DNA of 64,000 nt from a virus. The first letter of the stretch is position 1, and the number at the start of each line of letters is the position of its first letter. The translations under genes were made by a program, and so were the position numbers. Under the pieces are notes generated by a model, which was given only the letters and a program-made list of their open reading frames with translations, was not told the DNA's origin and did not search any database. This document shows, in pieces, positions 25,291 to 57,816 of the stretch. The stretch is taken from positions 1-64,000 of IMG/VR virus record IMGVR_UViG_3300045988_135716; one strand, given 5' to 3'.

Positions 25291-25379
25291 CGTACAGGGT
25301 AGGATTTGAACCCACGGATGGTTTTATCCATCAAATGCTTTCAAGGCATTCGCATTAAACCTGACTCTGCCACCTGTAC
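25291..25379 (-). tRNA. tRNA-Ser (anticodon UGA), class II with long variable arm
   Basis: Folded by hand: acceptor GTACAGG/CCTGTAC, D arm GCA/TGC, anticodon stem AATGC/GCATT with loop CTTGAAA, variable stem GATGG/CCATC, T arm GTGGG-TTCAAAT-CCTAC. Confidence 0.85.
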
Positions 25380-25511
25380 TGATTTTATCCAACCGCCATG
25401 AGTAGTAGCGGTGATGTTTTTTATGATATATCAAACATACTATTAAAACATATTTTATTAGTCGAATAACGTAATAATCGACACTCATTATTGGATTTTT
25501 ATAATCAAATA

Positions 25512-25540
25512 TTGAATAATCGCATCATAAGTTGTATAAT
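25512..25540 (+). promoter_or_regulatory. sigma-70-type promoter
   Basis: TTGAAT, 17-nt spacer, TATAAT. Confidence 0.55.
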
Positions 25541-25569
25541 TGTAAGAAAAATCCATTGGATGTATACAA

Positions 25570-25767
25570 ATGAGAGATACAACTTTAGATCTTAATCAAA
25601 TTAAAGAATTAGCTGATTATGTAGCTAAAAGAAGTGCTTCTGTTGGTTCTCAACCACTTCAAGTAAAAACATTCGTTAAAAAGTATATGGAAGCATATAC
25701 AGAAGCATTCAACGAAATTTCTGAACTTAATGATCAAAGAAGAAAAGAACAATCTGAAAATTTATAA
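25570..25767 (+). CDS. hypothetical protein (lone plus-strand ORF inside the minus arm)
   Basis: 65-aa helical ORF downstream of the promoter at 25512. Confidence 0.45.
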   Translation: MRDTTLDLNQIKELADYVAKRSASVGSQPLQVKTFVKKYMEAYTEAFNEISELNDQRRKEQSENL

Positions 25768-25929
25768 ATTAATTTTATTATTCTCATTAATTTCTTGAAT
25801 AATTCTATCAAAAAGATGTTTTGTTGTAGCTAAAGTGAATTCTTCATGTGAGAGAATTGTCAAAATTTTATCTTTGATTTTATTTTCATTATCATGCATA
25901 TAAGGTATTCCATCTTTTTCTACATACAT
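25762..25929 (-). CDS. small hypothetical protein
   Basis: 55-aa ORF MYVEKDGIPYMHDN..., convergent with and overlapping the 3' end of 25570..25767. Confidence 0.35.
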   Translation of the reverse strand: MYVEKDGIPYMHDNENKIKDKILTILSHEEFTLATTKHLFDRIIQEINENNKINL

Positions 25930-26020
25930 AATTTACCAACTTTCTAACTCATTTAGGGGACATCTCACAACGTCCCCTATCGCCAGTATATTTAAGAGAG
26001 TTTGATTATTCCTGGCTTAA

Positions 26021-26098
26021 TTGATATATTAGGCTTTGAACCTAAATCTACCAAATCCATACGGAAACAATCGCTCTAACCAATTGAGCTATATATCA
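26021..26098 (-). tRNA. tRNA-like element with non-foldable anticodon arm
   Basis: Canonical acceptor TGATATA/TATATCA, D arm GCTC-AATTGGTTA-GAGC and T arm TTAGG-TTCAAAG-CCTAA. The 26 nt between the D and T arms (normal is about 23) give no 5-bp stem with a 7-nt loop. Confidence 0.5.
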
Positions 26099-27016
26099 TT
26101 ATTATTATTATAAATGCTGAGATTACACATTTATACAGAAGTTCTTTTAGAACATTATGAGTTCTTTCCGTATCCACTATATACCTTACGCATATATAGT
26201 AAACTTCCACAACCGCCTTTTTGAAAGAGTGGCATTTCTCTTTTACTACATGACTACTCTGATTTTATTATTCCATTAACACCGCCGTGCTATAAATCTC
26301 CGCTAAGAGAACTGTGCAAACTCGATCAAACATCTCAAAGTCTTGCGAGACTTATTAATGTCCATATTATACTCTTATAAGTACTATGGAATTAGGTTGT
26401 TTTCACCATGTAGAGGTGTAGACTTTCGCTTTGTATGTAATATTTAAGTATATAAATATTCTTTTACCTTTTAAACGTAAACGGCATTCCACCATTCCCG
26501 ATAATATTATTCTACTTTTTTACAACAAGTTTAAGTCCAAGTTACAGAAGATGTGCTACACCAGACGCTTTCATTCCTTTTGAGAACAAAAATACATCAC
26601 ACCTTCATGTCTTTCAGTTATAATCCCTACTAAACGTTCATATAAGTAATATACTCATATAAATGGATAATGCACTCGATTAATAATTTCTCGCACTATT
26701 TATCCTCCTGATTCACCATTATATGCATATAAGTTTGCATGAGCTATCTGATTTGCGGTCAAAAAGTAATTCTCAGCGGTCGCCCCTAAATCACTTTATC
26801 GCTCCTTATAATACATACTATTTCCGCATAGACTCAATTGCGAAACGCAACCTTTTGAGTTACTGGTATGTCAGTTTTGCTTGAATTGACTATATTTCTA
26901 TAGCGATAGGGTGTAAATCTATCTTTATATACCTCACGATATACTATCTGTGTCAAGCCACATAATCGTAACAATAACATTGTAAAATTTATGATGCGTC
27001 ATAAAACGCATCAAAT
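26099..27016. ncRNA. ORF-free, hairpin-rich segment between tRNA genes; candidate large structured RNA
   Basis: No ORF of 60 aa or more in any frame over about 0.9 kb. Several short stems (aagtct-tgcg-agactt, ttgcg-aaa-cgcaa, gcactg/cagtgc nearby). Flanked by tRNA genes. Strand undetermined. Confidence 0.45.
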
Positions 27017-27087
27017 AGCGGATATTGGATTTGCACCAATGTTCTCTTGGTTATGAGCCAAGCGAGTTAACTACTTCTCTAATCCGC
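27017..27087 (-). tRNA. tRNA-Met-type (anticodon CAU), slightly aberrant
   Basis: Anticodon stem CTTGG/CCAAG with loop CTCATAA; acceptor GCGGAT/ATCCGC; T arm ATTGG-TGCAAAT-CCAAT. The T loop reads TGC rather than TTC, and there is a 7:66 mismatch. Confidence 0.6.
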
Positions 27088-27244
27088 ATTGTTATATTTT
27101 TAATCAACGGAAGCACTGTAGCGAAAGGGGAAGAATCAGTGCAACCGCCGATTATATACCAATTAGTCGCCAAACTAATCATAACTGTATTTCTATCGAG
27201 ATACTCTCAGATATTCATAAGAAACTAAGATTTCTCCTTTTTAA

Positions 27245-27729: not shown

Positions 27730-30537
27730 CTAAATCGACATTCTTTTTTTTCTACGATATTCTCTATCAATTCTACGCTTTTCTTTTAATTGACATTCTT
27801 CGCATCGACAGGATTTAGTATCTTTTATATCAACCTCAAACCATTCTCCACAATCAACGCACTGAATAAATTTAGTTTTCTTTATAGGAATATTAGACTC
27901 AAGATTTTTTACAACGTATTGACCATAACAAAACCAAAATAATTGTTTTGATCTTTTGTTATTTCCATATAAATATTTAACAAGCATGTCTGTTAATTCT
28001 TCATTTGAATAGCCAAACTTTGAAAATTCATCTCGAATTTGACAAGCAACATATCTCAGATTATCAATATATTCATCTTTCATATTGATTTTGTACCTGT
28101 ACTTTTTATTTAATTCATCATATAAATCAGATACTTCTTTTTTACAAGTTGTATTAACATTGCTCATCATTTTATGATAATCAAGTTTTCCAAGTTGTAA
28201 TCCCCTTGTGTTAATTGCCTTATTTGGAATTACGCTATAAAGTTTATTTACAAAACTTCCATTTCTTTTTTCTACTTGAGTCTTATTTTCATCCTCACTA
28301 ACTTTTTTATCCTTTGCATATTCAAAAAATGCAGGTAATTTTTTATTAGTAAATTCCTTAATCTGTGCAGATATTTCTTTTGGAAACTCTGGTTTATATA
28401 GTGTCTTGGCGAAGTCAATAACAAAATTATTCTGACAACATAATCGCTTTACACAATTAGTAGCATGTTGTTTCTCTTCATCTGTACCGTCAATGAAAAT
28501 GTCACTGTTCCAAATCTTTGAAATATTATTACTATAAATGCCGATATTTCCACCAGTAAATGCAGCATTTAATCCTGCATAAATATTTTTATTATTCAAC
28601 TCGACTGGTTTTGCTTTTTGCATATTATAATATAATGGAACAATACCATTCATATTTCTTTCAGCAATACGAATAAAATCTTGATCAGCTACAACAAGAG
28701 ATTTATCACCGTCAACATCAAATTGAAGAATCTTACTAATTAAATCATATGTACTGGTATAAACGGCATTAGTTGTAAACCATTTTCTGATTTTTTCAAC
28801 TCTTTCTCCGTATACTTTATTGGCAACATTAAATCGTATAGCATGTTCTTTATATAAATGTGGACTTCTAAGACAATCTAATTTATCATAATATTTGAAT
28901 AACCAACAAAATACTTCTTTATCTGCTAATAATCCTGTTGGGGTTTCAATGTGTCCAAACCAATATTCACATGCGGCATAAAAATCAGGAAGTAAAAATG
29001 TATATTTCCCATTAATGTCTAATCGACCACTACGATATTGTTTGAGAAGACTATTTTTTACTTCTCTAATAACATCTTTTGCATATGTATCATTTAATAA
29101 CGCAGGATATATTTTAACCGCTTTTTGAAACGGTGTCATATTATCGTTATATGGGGTAATTCCTAATACTTCCATCATTGTTTTTTCTGATGTACATATA
29201 TTAGTAATCTTTTCGATTGACTTAGATGCTAAAAGTAATATTTCTTCATCCGATATATTGGTAAGAGTTTGCAACATCTGATAGTTGATTTTTGCATTTT
29301 TAACTCTATCTTCTTCTGTATTACATCTACCAGCTTGACAATTATATTTTTTAAAGTATGTTTTGTATTCATCCCATGAATCATAGAACTTGTACATTTT
29401 AAACTGACTCTTTGTAAATATAATTTGAATATTTTCTTCGATGACATCGTGTTCTTTACCATATATATCTTTGATGATAGGAGAGTGGCTGTTTACTTTT
29501 ATAAATTTTACAAAATCAAATACACCTAACAATCCTTTTATCCATGGCGCACGAAACATTGTATTTTTATCCATAAGACACGGTAAGATCATTCCAGCTC
29601 CATCAGTGTGTGGAATTGGCACTAAACCAGTTTTTCTTTCAATTGAATAATTTGTCTCGTCTATAAAATCAAATGTACCAGGAACATTAGTTTCAAAATC
29701 GTCAATTACAATACATCTATCAATATCAAAATCAACCCATTGATCTGTTGCTGAATTTGCTAATGCCATGTAAGCCAAATGTTTATTAACATTATTACCA
29801 CCTTTAGAATTGATTTTATCAATCGTTAATCCACACATTACGGTTTTTTCTACTTGATTCCATACAGATTCTTTTATAAAAACTGCTTTCTTTTTACGAA
29901 TTTGTCCTGCTGATGATGTAAAATATCTATATTTTTCACCTTTATACATAAAACCATAAAAAGATAAATCTTTAAAAACATCGAAATAGTAAACCTGTAC
30001 TACGATAAGAGCATCTGTAAGTTCATCTTTTTTAATTCCAATAGTTCTGGTAAGAGAAGATTCAAAAACTGAAATAACATTTGTATCTTTCAATTCTTCT
30101 TGTCTTAAATATCGCAATGGTATATCTTTTTTTATTTCATTTTCTTCATTATATTTTGCAGTGTTCTCTTTTTCATAAACCTTAGTTGCAAGGATTTTTA
30201 ACAATTTCTCTTTTGACTCATTAGCTTTCTTTCTTTTATGCGCAATTAAACGATTCCAATAATTTAGTTGATTTCTGAGCTGATTAAATTGATCCATATC
30301 AGTTATGGATGTTTTTTCTATATCACTCAAAATATATTCAATATCTTTTTTAATCAACTCATATGTATCATCAGAACATCCAATAGTATTAAAATCTTTT
30401 TTAATTCCATCAAGTTTATTACTAATATAGTTTCGTTCTCTTCGATATTTACAATTCATTTCGTGAAGATACTTTTCTGAATTACTATAAAAATGACCAG
30501 TATCTACACTATACATATTAATTTGCGTGTCTAACAT
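27730..30537 (-). CDS. single-subunit two-barrel RNA polymerase, YonO / RNAi-RdRP-like
   Basis: FDVDGD (DxDGD metal-binding loop, nt 28705-28719) about 45 aa after CLRSPHLYKEH. Upstream is MFRAPWIKGLLGV (F-R-x-P-x-x-KG, nt 29533-29556). C-terminal CxxC...CxxC ribbon. Confidence 0.65.
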   Translation of the reverse strand: MLDTQINMYSVDTGHFYSNSEKYLHEMNCKYRRERNYISNKLDGIKKDFNTIGCSDDTYELIKKDIEYILSDIEKTSITDMDQFNQLRNQLNYWNRLIAHKRKKANESKEKLLKILATKVYEKENTAKYNEENEIKKDIPLRYLRQEELKDTNVISVFESSLTRTIGIKKDELTDALIVVQVYYFDVFKDLSFYGFMYKGEKYRYFTSSAGQIRKKKAVFIKESVWNQVEKTVMCGLTIDKINSKGGNNVNKHLAYMALANSATDQWVDFDIDRCIVIDDFETNVPGTFDFIDETNYSIERKTGLVPIPHTDGAGMILPCLMDKNTMFRAPWIKGLLGVFDFVKFIKVNSHSPIIKDIYGKEHDVIEENIQIIFTKSQFKMYKFYDSWDEYKTYFKKYNCQAGRCNTEEDRVKNAKINYQMLQTLTNISDEEILLLASKSIEKITNICTSEKTMMEVLGITPYNDNMTPFQKAVKIYPALLNDTYAKDVIREVKNSLLKQYRSGRLDINGKYTFLLPDFYAACEYWFGHIETPTGLLADKEVFCWLFKYYDKLDCLRSPHLYKEHAIRFNVANKVYGERVEKIRKWFTTNAVYTSTYDLISKILQFDVDGDKSLVVADQDFIRIAERNMNGIVPLYYNMQKAKPVELNNKNIYAGLNAAFTGGNIGIYSNNISKIWNSDIFIDGTDEEKQHATNCVKRLCCQNNFVIDFAKTLYKPEFPKEISAQIKEFTNKKLPAFFEYAKDKKVSEDENKTQVEKRNGSFVNKLYSVIPNKAINTRGLQLGKLDYHKMMSNVNTTCKKEVSDLYDELNKKYRYKINMKDEYIDNLRYVACQIRDEFSKFGYSNEELTDMLVKYLYGNNKRSKQLFWFCYGQYVVKNLESNIPIKKTKFIQCVDCGEWFEVDIKDTKSCRCEECQLKEKRRIDREYRRKKRMSI

Positions 30538-35544: not shown

Positions 35545-35649
35545 TTTGTGTAATCTCCTTTTTATTTTAATGATTTTTGATAATTATTATTTCTCTCTTT
35601 GCGGATTGAAATATTTAGTTTGCATGTTACTGGTTGTAGATTCTCTATT

Positions 35650-36600
35650 TGAAACAAAGATGATCTATTTTTGCTGGTGAAAATTTGAGGTTAGGTGGGA
35701 TATGAGAGTAGTGATTTTTGTGAATGTAAAAGTACCCCCACTTATCTTTCTATCTAATATTCTCTATTTGAGATTCTGCTTGAGATATTTGTTGTAGATT
35801 ATATGATGTAGATTTAATTTGAAAATTGTAACGTGCAAATGCTAAGTTGCTCAAGTGATGGTATTTGTGATGTTTATTCTAAGTTGTACATTAGAATAGT
35901 GAGCATAGAATTGATTTTAGAGTTGTAGATGATATGTGATTGATATGAAATTGAAATGATTGTATCTTGAAGTGTAACTTTAGCATTTCAAGATTTTTTA
36001 TAATGTATTTTTGAGTAAATTTTTGTGATTAGAATTGTGTGAAAGTTTGACACAATTTAGAGAGGTATTTCCTGATGATGTGAGATTATGGACTTCGAGA
36101 TAGGTGTTTTGGGTGATAATTTTGATTGAGATGGGAGAGTGATGTGTACTTTTAATAGGAAATGATTGCTGCGTTTTAGGTAGATGTGGCAAGGGAATAT
36201 GGGATATTGCAGGATGATAAAATTAAATTAAGTTTATGATCTTGAGATATATAATTAGGTATCACTTCGAGAAGACTTCGTAAATTGTTAGATTTTGCAA
36301 GGGATATTGTGATTTGGAGTAGGTAATTTTGGGTGAAAATTGGTGATTTAGAATTGTCAGAAAATTTATTTTGCGTTGATATGCAAGGGTGCGGTCGAAC
36401 TCAGTCTCGAACTCATTTTGATTATTTTGGTGAATTGTGTGTAGGTTTAGTGCAATTTGTGAGGTGGTATGAGGGTGAGAAATTTTTTGTTGCTGGTGGT
36501 GAGTGTAGAGTGATGGATTACCAGTTTTGATTTTTGGACGAGTAGTGTGAGTTGAACTCATCAGTGGATATGACAATATCATATTAAAATTACAAATGTA
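35650..36600. other. C-depleted (G+T-rich on plus strand) non-coding arm
   Basis: Hand count: 17 C in 360 nt (35881-36240). Only composition-artefact ORFs. Confidence 0.8.
35964..35999 (+). terminator. terminator-like hairpin inside the C-depleted arm
   Basis: atcttgaa-N15-ttcaagat followed by T5-6 on the plus strand. Confidence 0.4.
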
Positions 36601-37019
36601 AACTATCCCCGTCCTACTGGTATACATTATAAAACAGGATCATAAAATCGGATTAAAATAGTGTAATATGCAATTCCCGAAAAGCCTTGCTATTGTTGAA
36701 TAAAACTAACTTTTGCACTTTTGTGGGAAGTGTAAAAAAGTCAAGTTTTGTTATTATTTGACATTTTTACTCCGGTCAAAAACATGGGGGTGGTACAGGA
36801 TATAAAAGTTAGTATGATAAAACTAAAATTTTATCGGGTATTCTGGATATGAGATCACGGGACGGTAGACTTTAATTGTATAGACAATTATAAATATTAT
36901 TATAGTATACTCGAAAAAAGGAAAAGTGAGAAAATGAAAGAAAACAAGAGAAAATGAGCGAAAAAACGTGAATAAATGACTATCGGTCAATTCTGTTCGT
37001 TATGTTGGATTTCCAACAA

Positions 37020-38160
37020 AAAATTTGATTACAAGATTGTAACACAAAATCATAACACAAACTTATATCACCACTTGCACCACAAAAACGTAACAAAATA
37101 GACTAATACACTCCACTTTATACCCAAAAACAGCGGTAAAAATGGGATAGCGCACCACTACAAAATAATACATAAATGTAACACAAAAATTGTATCACAC
37201 TCATATAACACAAAAATCTGGACGAAATAAAACCATCTGGACGCACAACAGTAGACTCTACCAGATAGCAAGATCACACCCCAAACCATCCCCCAAAATA
37301 CAATATAAAATCATATTAACATAACACAATATACTCATACAATAACATCAAATAACCATACATAAACTCACAATAATATACAATATAATATACATTATAT
37401 ATCACATAATACATCACATATAACTTACAATATACATCTATCTATATTCAACTATATACCTACAATATACCACATAATATTACTATTATAATACCTCTGA
37501 TATATCATACAATATACTACAATACATACTCATACAATCAACCATAATGCCACATAATATAACGCATAATATACTCACACTAACCACACCACATTATACA
37601 ATCTGCATCCTATAAAACCATTGCAAATACTACATTCTAACACCATCCAGGGATTAAAATATAACATCAGATCACGATAAAATTATCTTAAAACAGGACG
37701 CAAAACACCACATAAAAACAGATAAAATTATACTCCAAACAAGATAAAAACCACACGCCAAACAGATAAAAATACCTCACATTTCAATCATAAATCAGAC
37801 AAAATACTCACACTTTACCGCAATATTTTACCCATTCGCACACAAAAAACAACGCTATTCTATACAAAATTTTGCATAAAAATACATCAATCAAACTGTA
37901 TAAATATACAATATTCTTGCATAAAATAGCGCACATTTTGACGTAAAAATACACCTAAAAACATATTAAAATGATACAAAAATATCATCATGCTGCACGT
38001 TTCAAACAGTCCAGATATACGATTGTAAATATATCATACTTACAAAATGACCTTGTAAAACGCTCTATAAACGACTTTAAGCGCATAACCCTATATAATT
38101 ATCATATCTAATATAAAAGCCCTTAAAACGTCAAATACACGCTTATAAGGCTATCTGTAC
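37020..38160. other. G-depleted (A+C-rich on plus strand) non-coding arm with several short direct-repeat families
   Basis: Hand count: about 75 G in 1140 nt and zero G in 37321-37440. No ORFs. Confidence 0.8.
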
Positions 38161-38212
38161 ATTTTGAACATGATAACAATAGGTTGTTTGTGTTACTTCC
38201 TATTATATGTGG

Positions 38213-38692
38213 CTAATACAACTGTTTTATCTTTGACAACATAGTATCTATATAACTATCTAATTCATTGTAATTTCTTCCATACCATAATAAATGTGCA
38301 ACAAAATCTATTTCTATATCTGCACATCTTCCGTTATTTAAGGCGTTGTATATATCTTCTTTATTGACTCTATATCTTCCATTTGATAACTTTTGATTAT
38401 ACTGTATATTATTATATCTAAGCATATCTAAACATCTTGACACGTTACCAGATACAATAAAAAATTTATATATTATATCTGTTATGCTGTCAGTGTCAGT
38501 TATAAATAAACATTTCCTTATTATATGGCGTATATACTCTATAAATAAATCATCATATAAATAATGTATATTTCCATTATCAAACAACTTTAAAGCATCA
38601 TAATAGTTTATGTCTCTTAAATGTTCTATGTGCTCTTTTGTTATTTTATCGTCTATCATATATTTATTTATAACCTTTTCTGTCAAGATCAT
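38213..38692 (-). CDS. hypothetical protein downstream of the RHH repressor
   Basis: Overlaps the RHH gene's 3' end, same strand. Confidence 0.5.
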   Translation of the reverse strand: MILTEKVINKYMIDDKITKEHIEHLRDINYYDALKLFDNGNIHYLYDDLFIEYIRHIIRKCLFITDTDSITDIIYKFFIVSGNVSRCLDMLRYNNIQYNQKLSNGRYRVNKEDIYNALNNGRCADIEIDFVAHLLWYGRNYNELDSYIDTMLSKIKQLY

Positions 38693-38852
38693 CCTGTATT
38701 AGCTTCTTGATATATACGCTCATTGGTATGTTATTATCTTTTGCATACCGTTTCATTCTTGCACATTCTTCCGTTTCTTCTGGTGTATATTTAAGTTTTA
38801 CAACTGTACATCTATCATTATAATCTTTTTGTGATTTTGGGCTATATGCCAT
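38664..38852 (-). CDS. ribbon-helix-helix (CopG/Arc-like) repressor candidate
   Basis: 62 aa with CTVVKLKYTPEE (beta strand) and IPMSVYIKKLIQDDL (helix B). Divergent from the operator-bearing early promoter. Confidence 0.55.
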   Translation of the reverse strand: MAYSPKSQKDYNDRCTVVKLKYTPEETEECARMKRYAKDNNIPMSVYIKKLIQDDLDRKGYK

Positions 38853-38985
38853 AATTCTTACACCTTTCTTTATTTATTATATGTAATAATTCTCTTTTTC
38901 TTTTTGGTGTAAGAGTAGTATTACATATTAACATTATAGCTTTATCCTGTCAACTTTTCTATTGACATTTGTGTATATTGTACTA

Positions 38986-39075
38986 ATAGGGTACCCTATG
39001 CAAATATGTAAATTATACACAATTCACAAACATAAAAAATCATAGGGTAACCTATTGACTAATAGGGTACCCTAT
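38986..39075. promoter_or_regulatory. three 14-bp palindromic operators: O1 38986-38999, O2 39042-39055, O3 39062-39075
   Basis: ATAGGGTACCCTAT occurs perfectly twice and once as ATAGGGTAACCTAT. Confidence 0.75.
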
Positions 39076-39083
39076 GGTATAGT
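39055..39083 (+). promoter_or_regulatory. early rightward promoter with operator O3 in the spacer
   Basis: TTGACT, 17-nt spacer, TATAGT. Confidence 0.6.
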
Positions 39084-39158
39084 AATACCATCAACAGAGG
39101 GGCAGAGATAAAATCAAAGTTCTAAAGTTGATAAAACTAAATAAAGGAGGTGACTCCA

Positions 39159-39266
39159 ATGACATATCCAATCGGATATCGTGGTCACTGTTTTCTTGCA
39201 ATAGTCAATGGCAAGTTGATGCAATTTGCAAGTGATACAGAATACTACGAATACATAACGGATTAA
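39159..39266 (+). CDS. 35-aa micro-ORF
   Basis: AAAGGAGGTGA SD 7 nt before the ATG; MTYPIGYRGHCFLAIVNGKLMQFASDTEYYEYITD. Confidence 0.45.
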   Translation: MTYPIGYRGHCFLAIVNGKLMQFASDTEYYEYITD

Positions 39267-40046
39267 TCATTGATGAGGGCATAGCCACAAGGCTTATAAG
39301 TCCCTCAAAATCACTTCCTTAAATGGTATTATACCATATTTAGTTTTTAACTACAAGTTAATCTAATAAGTCCCAAACAAGATTGAAACGGGCACACACT
39401 GAACCTTGCAGTTGAATAAAGGGTTGACTACTCGACAGCGAAAACTGTTATATGAGAGTCCTGGGTATCTGCCTCGAAAGAGATATTAGCGCATTCTGAA
39501 TTGCTGAAAGTATAGTAACAAAATCAGACGTTTGTAGAAAAGGTTTTTAACGTGAAAAAACTTGACCGTCAATGTGATCAACAGGGAATCACACAAAAAT
39601 AATAAGTTAGGGACGGGATAATAAATCAGAATTTAGTTTTACATAAAAGCAACTTATTAACAATAACATACTTGTAATAAGTGGCAAGTTACTTTTTTAC
39701 GGAATATCTAAAGCAACAAAAAATGGAGTCAAAACCATTTCAAAAAAAGAATGTGATGACCAAACTAAATAGTGGACGGTTTGTCTGGTATGAGTACCAC
39801 TTTAAAAGATAGGAAATCAGTCAAAAGCATGAGACAGCTTAATCATTCAAAAAATACGGTTGTCCGTATCCGATCAAAAAACGGGGAAAGATGCAAAACA
39901 AAGACCTAAGATTTGTTTAGACTGAAATAGTTTACTTGTTATCTATCAATGATACATAAAAATAAGTCGTTATCATAAAACGTTAAAAGCGTTCTGATTT
40001 ACGAAAAATCATTGCAAGCGGTTAATCATTAATCACTTGCTTTTTT
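39267..40046 (+). ncRNA. about 780-nt untranslated RNA segment ending at a strong intrinsic terminator
   Basis: No ORF of 60 aa or more in either strand. Several hairpins (tgaggg...ccctca, atacgg-ttgt-ccgtat, acttatta...taataagt). Terminator at 40014-40046. Confidence 0.5.
40014..40046 (+). terminator. intrinsic terminator
   Basis: 12-bp stem with one mismatch (gcaagcggttaa/ttaatcacttgc) followed by T6. Confidence 0.75.
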
Positions 40047-40224
40047 GTTTTACTTAGGTTGCAAGGCATTATCAACAAGCAAAGTTATTTGAAAGACGGG
40101 CAAAAGCGTAAGACCCGTGGCGGTGAGTAGTAGTCAAGTATAAATAATTTCTAATGTTGAATTATAATGGCTTGCAAAAATGAGAACAAAAAGAGAATAC
40201 ATAAACATACAGGAGGGAAATACG

Positions 40225-40551
40225 ATGACAACATATGTAGACGTAATTGCAAGAAAAGATACTATCACAATTGATGGTTATACATCAAACAAAACAGAAC
40301 GTGGCATTATTAAAGATGTTGCAAGAGTAGTTTCAAAATACGATCAGAGTGAAGCCAACACTCTTCTTGATTACTTAAAAATGGGGTTGAACAAGTACAA
40401 TACTCCATTTGCTAAAGCATCTGAAAGTGAAGGCGGTTATTTCTTTGAATATGAAGAAGTGCCATGTGCTACAAGATACAATGAAGAAACTGACGAGATG
40501 AAATATAAAGAAGGTTATTACAACTACTTTTGTATTAGAATTGTTAAATAA
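40225..40551 (+). CDS. hypothetical early protein
   Basis: AGGAGGG SD before the ATG at 40225. Confidence 0.55.
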   Translation: MTTYVDVIARKDTITIDGYTSNKTERGIIKDVARVVSKYDQSEANTLLDYLKMGLNKYNTPFAKASESEGGYFFEYEEVPCATRYNEETDEMKYKEGYYNYFCIRIVK

Positions 40552-41008: not shown

Positions 41009-41092
41009 GCAGTAACATAGCACACAAGTAAATGACGCTTGTGTGTTTTTTAGTACCTATAAACAGAGAACTATAGAAGGGAAGGTGCAACA

Positions 41093-47598: not shown

Positions 47599-47636
47599 TA
47601 GCCTTGTAGAGAATAAATCTATAAGGCTAATTTTAT
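47599..47636 (+). terminator. terminator-like hairpin
   Basis: tagcctt/aaggcta stem followed by ATTTTAT. Confidence 0.45.
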
Positions 47637-49238: not shown

Positions 49239-49274
49239 ACAGGTGGTACTTGATATAGAGTGCCACCTGTTTTA
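49239..49274 (+). terminator. intrinsic terminator
   Basis: acaggtgg/ccacctgt stem followed by TTTTA. Confidence 0.65.
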
Positions 49275-57791: not shown

Positions 57792-57816
57792 GGGTGATAG
57801 AAATATCACCCATTTT
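57791..57816 (+). terminator. intrinsic terminator with GAAA tetraloop
   Basis: gggtgata-gaaa-tatcaccc followed by ATTTTC. Confidence 0.7.

Follow-up and report, generated by a model that had tools for sequence, protein, structure and literature searches.

The 64,000-nucleotide stretch of viral DNA analysed here (the window; positions 1 to 64,000 of IMG/VR virus record IMGVR_UViG_3300045988_135716) carries minus-strand genes across 1–38852 and plus-strand genes from 39150 on. Between the two arms lies an operator-controlled early promoter and, behind it on the plus strand, the element under study: a leader formed by a near-invariant transcript start, a micro-protein cassette, a series of small hairpin modules, an intrinsic terminator and a rod-like element, S8, that reaches the 5′ untranslated region (5′UTR) of the first early gene. 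An original prediction had described a 0.95-kb unit (39084–40046) ending at 40046; a terminator is indeed found there, but the functional unit runs on through the covarying rod to the 5′UTR. Comparison with related loci identifies the feature as a conserved, modular, structured leader RNA that extends ~180 nt past the predicted interval.

The first relatives came from an exact look-up of the downstream 108-amino-acid (aa) protein, which gave ten 20-kb loci. The transcript-start 18-mer TAATACCATCAACAGAGG, invariant in these ten, served as the anchor for viral and metagenome collections, and loci with the TATAG of a −10 box directly before the 18-mer were accepted as true (n = 79). More distant relatives (L112, L114 and L115) were added via a motif search for the 3′ core of the leader; about 85 loci of the lineage have the same layout. 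In L112 and L114 the leader start is slightly altered. A blastn search of 39050–40180 against GenBank phages returned no match, and the one GenBank relative, MT835469.1, was later reached via a protein.

The early promoter (39055–39083, plus strand) combines a −35 box TTGACT with, after a 17-nt spacer, the extended −10 element TGGTATAGT; the predicted TTGACT-17-TATAGT arrangement is present, together with a TG at the extended −10 position. The operator palindrome TAGGGTACCCTA occurs three times, at 38987–98, 39043–54 (one mismatch) and 39063–74, flanking the −35 box and filling the spacer. All three matches lie at the promoter and none elsewhere in the 64 kb, three matches being reached by 4 of 100 shuffles. 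The arrangement is that of a sigma-70-type promoter, its hexamers 17 nt apart, under repeated, overlapping palindromic operators. Divergent from it, a minus-strand gene of 62 aa (38664–38852) encodes a putative operator-binding repressor of ribbon-helix-helix (RHH)-like type, so assigned from a weak Pfam match to DUF6290 (E = 0.026, below the cut-off).

The same three-site layout recurs in relatives with at least nine different palindromes, TAGGGTACCCTA, ATGGTTTAAACCAT, TAAGTGATACTTA, TAGGGATTCCTA, TAGGTAAAACCTA, TAAGGTAAACCTTA, ATCTAAAAAATAGAT and ATAGGAGCACCTAT among them. Relatives with other palindromes carry other variants of the small divergent gene (65, 74 or 76 aa), and in the distant L115 a helix-turn-helix-type regulator replaces the RHH-like gene. 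Across all immunity types the −35 TTGNNN and the TGnTATAGT are constant and the spacer, with its operator, varies. By this comparison the lineage holds at least nine immunity types, in which operator palindrome and divergent regulator are swapped together. The repressor gating put forward in the original prediction is well supported, because the palindrome and the leftward gene change together while the −35 box, the −10 box and the transcript start stay constant. Transcription from the operator-covered promoter is predicted to start at about 39090. The start region (39083–39134, plus strand) consists of the near-invariant TAATACCATCAACAGAGG, exact in 79 loci, and a 5′-terminal hairpin in which CCATCAAC (39088–95) pairs with GTTGAT (39127–32); the AUCAAC/GUUGAU pairing is retained with differing loops in several leader types and in L112. 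That the leader ranks as the very first product of infection we infer from the promoter architecture.

Downstream of the micro-protein gene the leader has no coding capacity. From 39267 to 40180 there is no open reading frame (ORF) of 50 codons or more on either strand under the standard code, and the longest frame with TGA or TAG as sense is at most 88 codons; a hidden gene under an alternative code was rejected, since reading TGA, TAG or TAA as sense opens none. The ORF-free stretch that had been noticed is borne out at ~750 bases between the 35-codon ORF and the terminator. The leader, taken as the span between the transcript start and the ATGGCTTGCAAAAATGA that precedes the first gene, is 429–1110 nt long in the 79 loci, holds a long ORF in none and lies in all of them between the operator promoter and the first early gene. 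Against shuffled sequences, the interval 39084–40046 folds with z = −4.6 on the plus and −3.4 on the minus strand.

Leaders may fail to align even between phages with 99–100% identity in the flanking genes. Blocks of 40–170 nt recombine in varied combinations, independent of operator type: among the 79 loci the window's micro-ORF block is found in 22, module S3 in 19, S4 in 18, S5 in 21 (plus 20 partial), the 3′ core in 44–45, the terminator region in 52 and the post-terminator element in 39 (plus 24 partial). These comparisons describe the leader RNA as a mosaic of short, exchangeable hairpin modules, with at least ten small independent hairpins. The long non-coding RNA originally envisaged stands in so far as the RNA is structured, non-coding and under selection on the plus strand, but not as a single molecule with one fold; the A-tracts that had been remarked on are real and form linkers between the hairpins. 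A decayed gene or a neutral spacer without function might look similar, being devoid of long ORFs, AT-rich and strongly variable between relatives. It is scarcely credible here, given the compensatory changes and conserved loops described below, a stretch that is non-coding in every relative with no intact protein gene in any, and the lack of an open frame under alternative codes.

Module S3 (39323–39634, plus strand), supported by compensatory changes, comprises several hairpins, including CTAATAAGTCCC (39363–74) and TGTGAT..ATCACA (39573–93). In the latter UGUGAU/AUCACA is exchanged for UGUAAG/CUUACA around a constant loop CAACARGGA, and elsewhere in S3 UCUGA/UCAGA is exchanged for GCUG/CAGC; part of the module, CUAAUAAGUCC...GCACAC, recurs in two relatives at greater distance, L112 and L115. 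Module S4 (39645–39698, plus strand; 18 loci) is a long AU-rich hairpin followed by T6, and so terminator-like. The predicted hairpin acttatta..taataagt (39654–39686) within it is not kept in all relatives, and support for S4 is weak because hairpin and T6 run are lost in L022 and L059. A 71% complementarity between S4 and the terminator was discounted as the likeness of two similar hairpins. Module S5 (39722–39801, plus strand) opens with the hairpin AAUGG-AGUCAAAA-CCAUU (39722–39739), continues through an A-rich linker to the conserved box GAAUGUGAUGACCAAAC (GAWUGUGAUGNCCAAA; 39749–39765) and closes with the hairpin AGUGG..CCACU (39771–39801), which had been picked out beforehand and is invariant in relatives. 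Three unrelated stems surround the S5 loop AGUCAAAA in different loci: AAAUGG/CCAUUU, CUGAC/GUCAG and AGGAU/AUCCU.

The 3′ core (39856–40003, plus strand) provides the strongest numbers, with 17 distinct sequences in 45 of the 79 loci. It contains hairpins A (39856–73, loop UUGUCCGUAU), B (39896–918), B2 (39919–33), C (39934–67), D (39968–82) and E (39990–40003). Covariation was counted in an alignment of nine diverse sequences under a hand-derived structure, with slid-partner controls and 500 shuffles. In this alignment 89.6% of cells are paired, as against 34–49% with slid partners, and ten pairs are changed on both sides, as against 1–4 in the slid controls; none of the 500 shuffles matches the observed value. 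The structure was derived from the same sequences in which the pairs were counted, which favours the fit; the slid controls are nonetheless far lower. Hairpin A closes its invariant loop UUGUCCGUAU with CGG/CCG, CGG/CUG or CAG/CUG. The original prediction had placed a hairpin, atacgg-ttgt-ccgtat, at this position (39856); the hairpin is there but its register was wrong, covariation backing the exchange of CGG/CCG and CAG/CUG as the pairs that close UUGUCCGUAU. An invariant CCGU:ACGG pairing at 39881–84 could make hairpin A part of a pseudoknot. Hairpin C has the stems ACUUGU/AUAAGU, ACUUGU/ACAAGU, GAAAG/CUUUC and GAAGG/CCUUC around the loop UCUAUCAAUGAUACAUAAAA, hairpin E the stems CGU/ACG, CGAU/AUCG and CGG/CCG, and in other leader types CAGAG-loop hairpins show four different perfect stems around the loop CAGAGUCAAUAAG. 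In many of the hairpins, stems covary and loops are kept.

Within the 3′ core G.U cells outnumber A.C cells (22 versus 11), which favours the plus-strand RNA as the molecule on which selection acts. This asymmetry bears on a reading in which the stretch acts as DNA, as a replication origin, packaging or partition site, and is transcribed incidentally. Its position at the divergence point of the gene arms and at the cumulative GC skew minimum, its A-tracts, and the fact that both strands fold better than shuffles would suit such a site. The changes that preserve pairing only through plus-strand G.U are common, however; there are no iterons and only one DnaA-like 9-mer, with a mismatch; and the sequence between conserved ends is replaced wholesale among near-identical phages, unlike an origin matched to its initiator. 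We consider a DNA site very improbable. Searches of the region found no giant inverted repeat, the palindrome CTTGCAAG was dropped as a recurrent protein site because it is not enriched, and no second copies or complements of the conserved motifs occur beyond chance elsewhere in the window or the loci.

The core is followed by the intrinsic terminator (40014–40051, plus strand), a 27-nt hairpin GCAAGCGGTTAATCATTAATCACTTGC (40014–40040) and the run U6GU4. A consensus scan misses the hairpin and RNAfold forms it. A hairpin and T6 had been predicted at 40014–40046 and both are there, but the stem has 11 pairs with one internal mismatch and not 12 bp. A stable hairpin directly followed by a U-run is what defines intrinsic terminators, and terminator activity is predicted here on that ground. 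In nearly all variants a hairpin directly precedes the conserved U-run, and at least four non-homologous sequences provide it; exceptions are confined to the L011 type, where it is weak, and the L024 type, where no hairpin is adjacent. In L061 a change perfects the stem. Because unrelated hairpins abut the conserved U-run in nearly all variants, termination appears to be a selected feature. In the L024 type, with no clear terminator, the leader runs straight into genes, and the distant L115 has a strong terminator just ~45 nt before the first gene.

The sequence behind the terminator is conserved in almost all relatives and folds into S8 (40041–40195, plus strand), a rod-like element of ~155 nt present as a single copy per locus. 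In its stalk the U-run, UUGCAAG and CAU pair with AUG, CUUGCAA and GAACAAAAAG of the first gene's 5′UTR. The 20 pairs of the stalk are nearly invariant and each change is a one-sided switch to wobble; over the stalk and helix P3, 11 of 11 column changes preserve wobble pairing. The element folds with z = −2.9, 1 of 200 shuffles folding as well. Two tiers in the middle of the rod differ wholly between variant groups and keep their complementarity, cognate arms pairing with −5.6 and −6.2 kcal/mol and non-cognate ones with −2.7 and −3.4; only ~11% of the non-cognate pairs attain the cognate mean. The apex holds the core CGGGCAAAAGCGUAAGACCCGUGGCGGUGAGUAGUAG (40097–40133), with CGGGCAAAAGCGUAAGACCCG...GGUGAGUAGUAG and a CGGG/CCYG stem. 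In the L024 type the rod is shrunk to its basal hairpin. Since the 5′ strand of S8 is the terminator U-run itself, the rod can exist only in RNA that continues past the terminator, which implies that the terminator is at least partly read through and that the resulting transcripts matter. A separate sigma-70 promoter before the first gene was rejected: the −10-like hexamer (before GGCTTGC) varies, lacks a consistent −35 and lies inside a covarying stem. A likeness of TAAATAATTTCTAATGTTG (40140–40158) to a Cas12a repeat was likewise dropped, as there is no repeat hairpin and no match among CRISPR direct repeats. The rod leads into the conserved 5′UTR, the Shine–Dalgarno (SD) sequence (about 40211–17) and the first early gene (ATG at 40225, 108 aa), together 40196–40551 on the plus strand; the 5′UTR ATGGCTTGCAAAAATGA... 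is constant before differing first genes.

The micro-protein cassette lies near the other end of the leader, between the 5′-terminal hairpin and S3. It consists, on the plus strand, of an SD sequence AAGGAGGTGA (39144–39153), the 35-codon ORF (39159–39266), a GC-rich hairpin (39274–39307) and an anti-SD sequence TCACTTCCTT (39311–39320). SD and ORF are present as had been predicted, and the hairpin tgaggg..ccctca is real and conserved behind the ORF. The earlier description of a transcript coding for only a 35-aa peptide holds for the ORF as such, but the ORF is more than incidental, being a conserved gene for a micro-protein and having an SD/anti-SD lock of its own. Between the window and L024 the ORF keeps 85% nucleotide identity amid flanks that cannot be aligned, the differences at codon positions 1/2/3 numbering 1/5/9 and the replacements being conservative (Y>F twice, I>M, E>D and S>N); synonymous changes are also seen in the micro-ORF of L112 and L114. 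Two further peptide types, of 29 and 50 aa, stand at the same place behind the same AAGGAGGT, and the peptide types have in common the loose pattern G-[YW]-x-x-G ... [FY]-[AP]-[ST]-x-x-E-[AY]-x-E. A profile of all peptide types retrieved 45 database clusters of 29–35-aa relatives, among which the 29-mer is represented by over 20 variants and the 34/35-mer by 6, with length and frame kept; no Pfam domain or name is attached to any of the 45. The substitution pattern marks the 35-aa ORF as a real micro-protein gene under purifying selection, of an unnamed family.

Behind every micro-ORF stand a GC-rich hairpin and, after it, a complement of that ORF's SD. SD and complement covary, as GGAGGUGA/UCACUUCC in the window, GGAGGUAUC/GAUACCUCC in L011, GGAGGUAUU/AAUACCUCC in L112 and GGAGGUA/UGCCUCC in L017, and the minimum-free-energy fold of the window pairs SD with anti-SD. 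The downstream anti-SD could thus lock the ribosome-binding site of the micro-protein gene. Such SD sequestration is present here but is not specific to type I toxin–antitoxin loci, and a type I toxin comparable to bsrG/SR4 or yonT/SR6 of SPbeta was dropped because the peptides are not the small hydrophobic membrane peptides of that class: they are acidic or near neutral, with grand average of hydropathy values of −0.11 to −0.36 and a best 15-residue hydropathy window of at most 1.19. The micro-protein might itself be the product of the locus, a potent early peptide such as an antirepressor or host-directed factor, the remainder being a long 3′UTR for stability and translational control. Purifying selection on an ORF with many variants, the strong SD and the covarying lock in all three peptide types speak for this reading, but about half of the leader types (those of L001, L004, L016 and L022) lack a micro-ORF and retain a structured leader of 450–800 nt, and the covarying modules are for the most part found hundreds of bases beyond the ORF, so that we regard it as quite unlikely. 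A motif, AAUAAGUCC (or AAUAAGACC), recurs in settings that are otherwise unrelated, on the 3′ side of the post-ORF hairpin (39296), in module S3a (39366) and in the loops of the CAGAG hairpins that other leader types carry (L004 9385–9440); it may be a shared recognition site.

Rfam 15 holds no family that matches the leader at gathering thresholds: the whole window returned only GOLLD and three tRNAs, all outside the leader, and sixteen variant loci gave no match. For 38900–40300 at E ≤ 10 the best hit was the DUF805 RNA motif (RF03081), at 39718–39804 in S5, which was rejected at 21.8 bits (E = 0.37) against a gathering threshold of 51.1; the resemblance consists of a hairpin with an AG-rich loop, A-runs and UAUGAGUA. 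No tRNA-like elements were found in the leader region.

RNA structure, a micro-protein gene, a preserved terminator and a downstream rod are all evident at the level of sequence. We tentatively read the interval, with somewhat less than even confidence, as the cis-acting structured leader and checkpoint terminator of a repressor-controlled rightward early operon; among the three options first offered, a riboregulated leader fits best. The early genes would most probably be expressed by read-through from upstream, because the sole operator-controlled promoter lies there and the rod forms only past the terminator. The terminator would act as a checkpoint or insulator, stopping the bulk of transcription or its leaky part. 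As recognition or processing elements, for example in antitermination or RNase III-type cleavage, or as elements of stabilisation, the hairpin modules and the rod would set how much polymerase enters an operon in which more terminators lie ahead. The 0.95-kb RNA need not be the final product: ending at the checkpoint, it would be a plentiful by-product that might also have a function. The checkpoint model fits the upstream-only promoter, the position of the terminator in L115, S8 and the internal terminators. Terminator-like plus-strand sites stand between genes of the right arm at 41019–41047, 47599–47629, 49239–49270 and 57792–57811, the first of them 0.8 kb after the first early gene; 16 such sites were found against 4.1 expected.

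Several points weigh against the checkpoint model. In the window the best duplex between the terminator and an upstream antiterminator complement is no better than with shuffled arms (z = −0.29), and over 16 variants the mean z is −0.3, only 3 variants standing out; with no upstream complement the terminator looks constitutive, and its bypass would need a factor. RNAfold of the nascent RNA pairs the 5′ arm of the terminator with 39485–39537, a duplex that shuffled arms equal. No boxA-like sequence is found in 39084–40224 with up to 1–2 mismatches, and the first early proteins have no match in Pfam or PHROG and no known antiterminator homologue, in scans that did not include a ConAn1 profile. 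A non-sigma-70 promoter between the terminator and the first gene, such as one for the phage's YonO-like RNA polymerase (see below), is possible. Finally, at least ten hairpins with conserved loops, swapped like cassettes, far exceed what a simple attenuator needs.

This excess of modules, conserved loops and cassette exchange keeps alive a trans-acting reading, in which the terminated or processed leader is itself the product: one or more early RNAs whose exchangeable modules would be decoys or sponges aimed at RNA-binding factors of the host or of phages, for instance in defence evasion or host take-over. Non-homologous hairpins preserve the terminator, a 5′-terminal hairpin is typical of stable RNAs, and loops kept on swapped stems suggest sequence-specific recognition. 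The mosaic modules occur independently of immunity type, like accessory cassettes; the neighbouring early genes of relatives encode ArdA, a Lar-like restriction alleviation protein and DUF4121; and the same phage already holds another large RNA, GOLLD. Set against this, no target, partner or known decoy family was identified, Rfam gives no match to CRISPR repeats or tRNA-like models among its families, and elsewhere in the window neither the motifs nor their complements recur more often than chance allows. The constant position before the early genes and the terminator-spanning rod argue for a role at least partly in cis. On balance we hold the trans-acting reading to be possible, if on the unlikely side. 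A bolder form of it, which we think doubtful, would make the stretch between invariant start and U-run an 'RNA accessory island', a first-transcribed array of independently folding, horizontally exchanged hairpin modules and optional micro-proteins serving as decoys for different host or rival-phage factors; were it true, the phage's earliest counter-defence would be borne by RNA rather than protein.

The window is part of a large (~175 kb), SPbeta-like and probably temperate phage of a gut Firmicute, as indicated by a YonO-type polymerase, related contigs of 170–180 kb and a 176-kb faecal record. The polymerase, a single-chain two-barrel RNA polymerase of 935 aa (27730–30537, minus strand), matches Pfam RdRP at 46.8 bits (cut-off 23.8) and, in tblastn, shows 44–51% identity over 82–96% of its length to SPbeta, phi3T, Psychrobacillus phage Perkons and Clostridium phage D-1873, with further matches in Enterocloster bolteae phages; by this likeness the phage groups with SPbeta, phi3T and the toxin-converting phages of Clostridium botulinum. 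Relatives are 170–180 kb long or embedded in contigs of 210–250 kb, and the isolate assembly GCA_015560815.1 is one carrier. A scan of a genome collection for the 18-mer gave chance hits only. MT835469.1 (locus L120), a 176,210-bp record labelled 'UNVERIFIED: Bacteriophage sp.' from human faeces and without annotation, shares the switch, S5, the terminator and S8 with the window and has another variant of the leader. One early protein of the lineage is indexed in 484 blocks of an assembly collection, and the lineage is common in human gut metagenomes.

Three further features of these genomes deserve mention. In some relatives (L002, L009, L003–L006) the early region behind the leader carries genes for ArdA, DUF4121, Lar-type restriction alleviation and Bro-N/ORF6C; from its gene content, the head of the operon is an anti-restriction neighbourhood of variable composition. 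The GOLLD RNA of the window (26114–26607, minus strand; 172 bits against a gathering threshold of 150) is flanked by tRNA-Ser(tga), tRNA-Arg(ccg) and tRNA-Met(cat) (25291–27088, minus strand), just downstream of the YonO-like gene. It may stand at the head of this phage's late operon, since the YonO-driven late operon of SPbeta reportedly starts upstream of an unannotated non-coding RNA (PMC5467207). Lastly, 35560–38210 is a second and larger ORF-free stretch (2.65 kb) with extreme strand asymmetry: read on the minus strand, 38000–37000 is G+T-rich with 6% C and 36650–35600 is C+A-rich with 8% G. Ten relatives, with 72–94% identity to the window at this place, have no called gene in it either; it is not a giant inverted repeat, and a 121-aa ORF at 36262–36627 looks spurious.

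The locus thus joins a genetic switch to an RNA structure of ~1.1 kb that is absent from databases. New here are at least six covariation-supported motifs, a family of ~30-residue micro-proteins and a terminator that merges into a rod-like element. Should the leader prove to be a checkpoint or antitermination device, the logic lately established for Gram-positive conjugative plasmids would extend to large temperate phages; should it act in trans, it would be a new kind of early phage RNA. Either way its modules are short, well defined and suited to reporter tests.

Among known systems, lambdoid early-operon control (lambda N/nut with tR1/tL1, and the HK022 put RNA) offers repressor-gated early promoters, promoter-proximal hairpins with conserved loops, a small first gene and terminators to be passed before the delayed-early genes, all of which have counterparts here. 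The present leader differs from lambda N/nut in that no boxA was found, in its far more numerous hairpins and in its Gram-positive host; its small ORF cannot be a universal N-like factor because it is optional. RNase III processing hairpins, as between the T7 early genes and in the lambda N leader, resemble S8 in being long irregular stems formed from the flanks of an intergenic stretch directly upstream of a ribosome-binding site, but S8 carries at its apex a conserved core for which such sites have no need. The aimX transcript of the arbitrium system in SPbeta and phi3T, a short non-coding or small-peptide transcript that biases the choice between lysis and lysogeny, belongs to a related phage group and is likewise the immediate product of a regulated promoter. 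Here, in contrast, an RHH-like repressor and palindromic operators are in control, no AimR or AimP genes were identified near the promoter, and the RNA is about ten times longer and modular.

GOLLD and ROOL, known from Firmicutes phages, are single large ornate folds with long-range tertiary structure (Rfam, PMC12286853); the leader shares with them that it is non-coding, structured and phage-borne, and differs in being a mosaic string of small local hairpins. In the conjugation operon of pLS20, which is 32 kb long and holds internal terminators, a repressor controls the promoter, and the 456-nt leader behind it contains a terminator that acts as attenuator; conAn, an RNA/protein module, provides processive antitermination. 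Its conAn2 element spans 260–600 bp and is poorly conserved in sequence (PMC13401043, PMC8191782). Both systems belong to Firmicutes mobile elements. In each, a strong promoter is repressed via several operators and a regulator gene is transcribed divergently from it; several hundred non-coding nucleotides follow as a leader, closed by an intrinsic terminator ahead of the first genes, and internal terminators recur along a long operon. pLS20 has in addition a non-coding element with inverted-repeat ends of ~20 nt and a GC-rich core, to which S8 may correspond. The defining zipper-type (cATT) upstream complement of the pLS20 terminator is not found here, no ConAn1-like protein was recognised in the Pfam and PHROG scans and there is no sequence similarity; the phage element, for its part, has a micro-protein gene and many more, shuffled hairpin modules. 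S8, compared with conAn2, is shorter (~155 nt), abuts the terminator and has a 20-pair stalk with a GC-rich apex, again without similarity in sequence. By analogy, pLS20 is the closest experimentally studied system, the likeness being one of architecture only. The leader takes its place among the long regulatory leaders of mobile-element operons, and within that class it is its modularity that is unusual.

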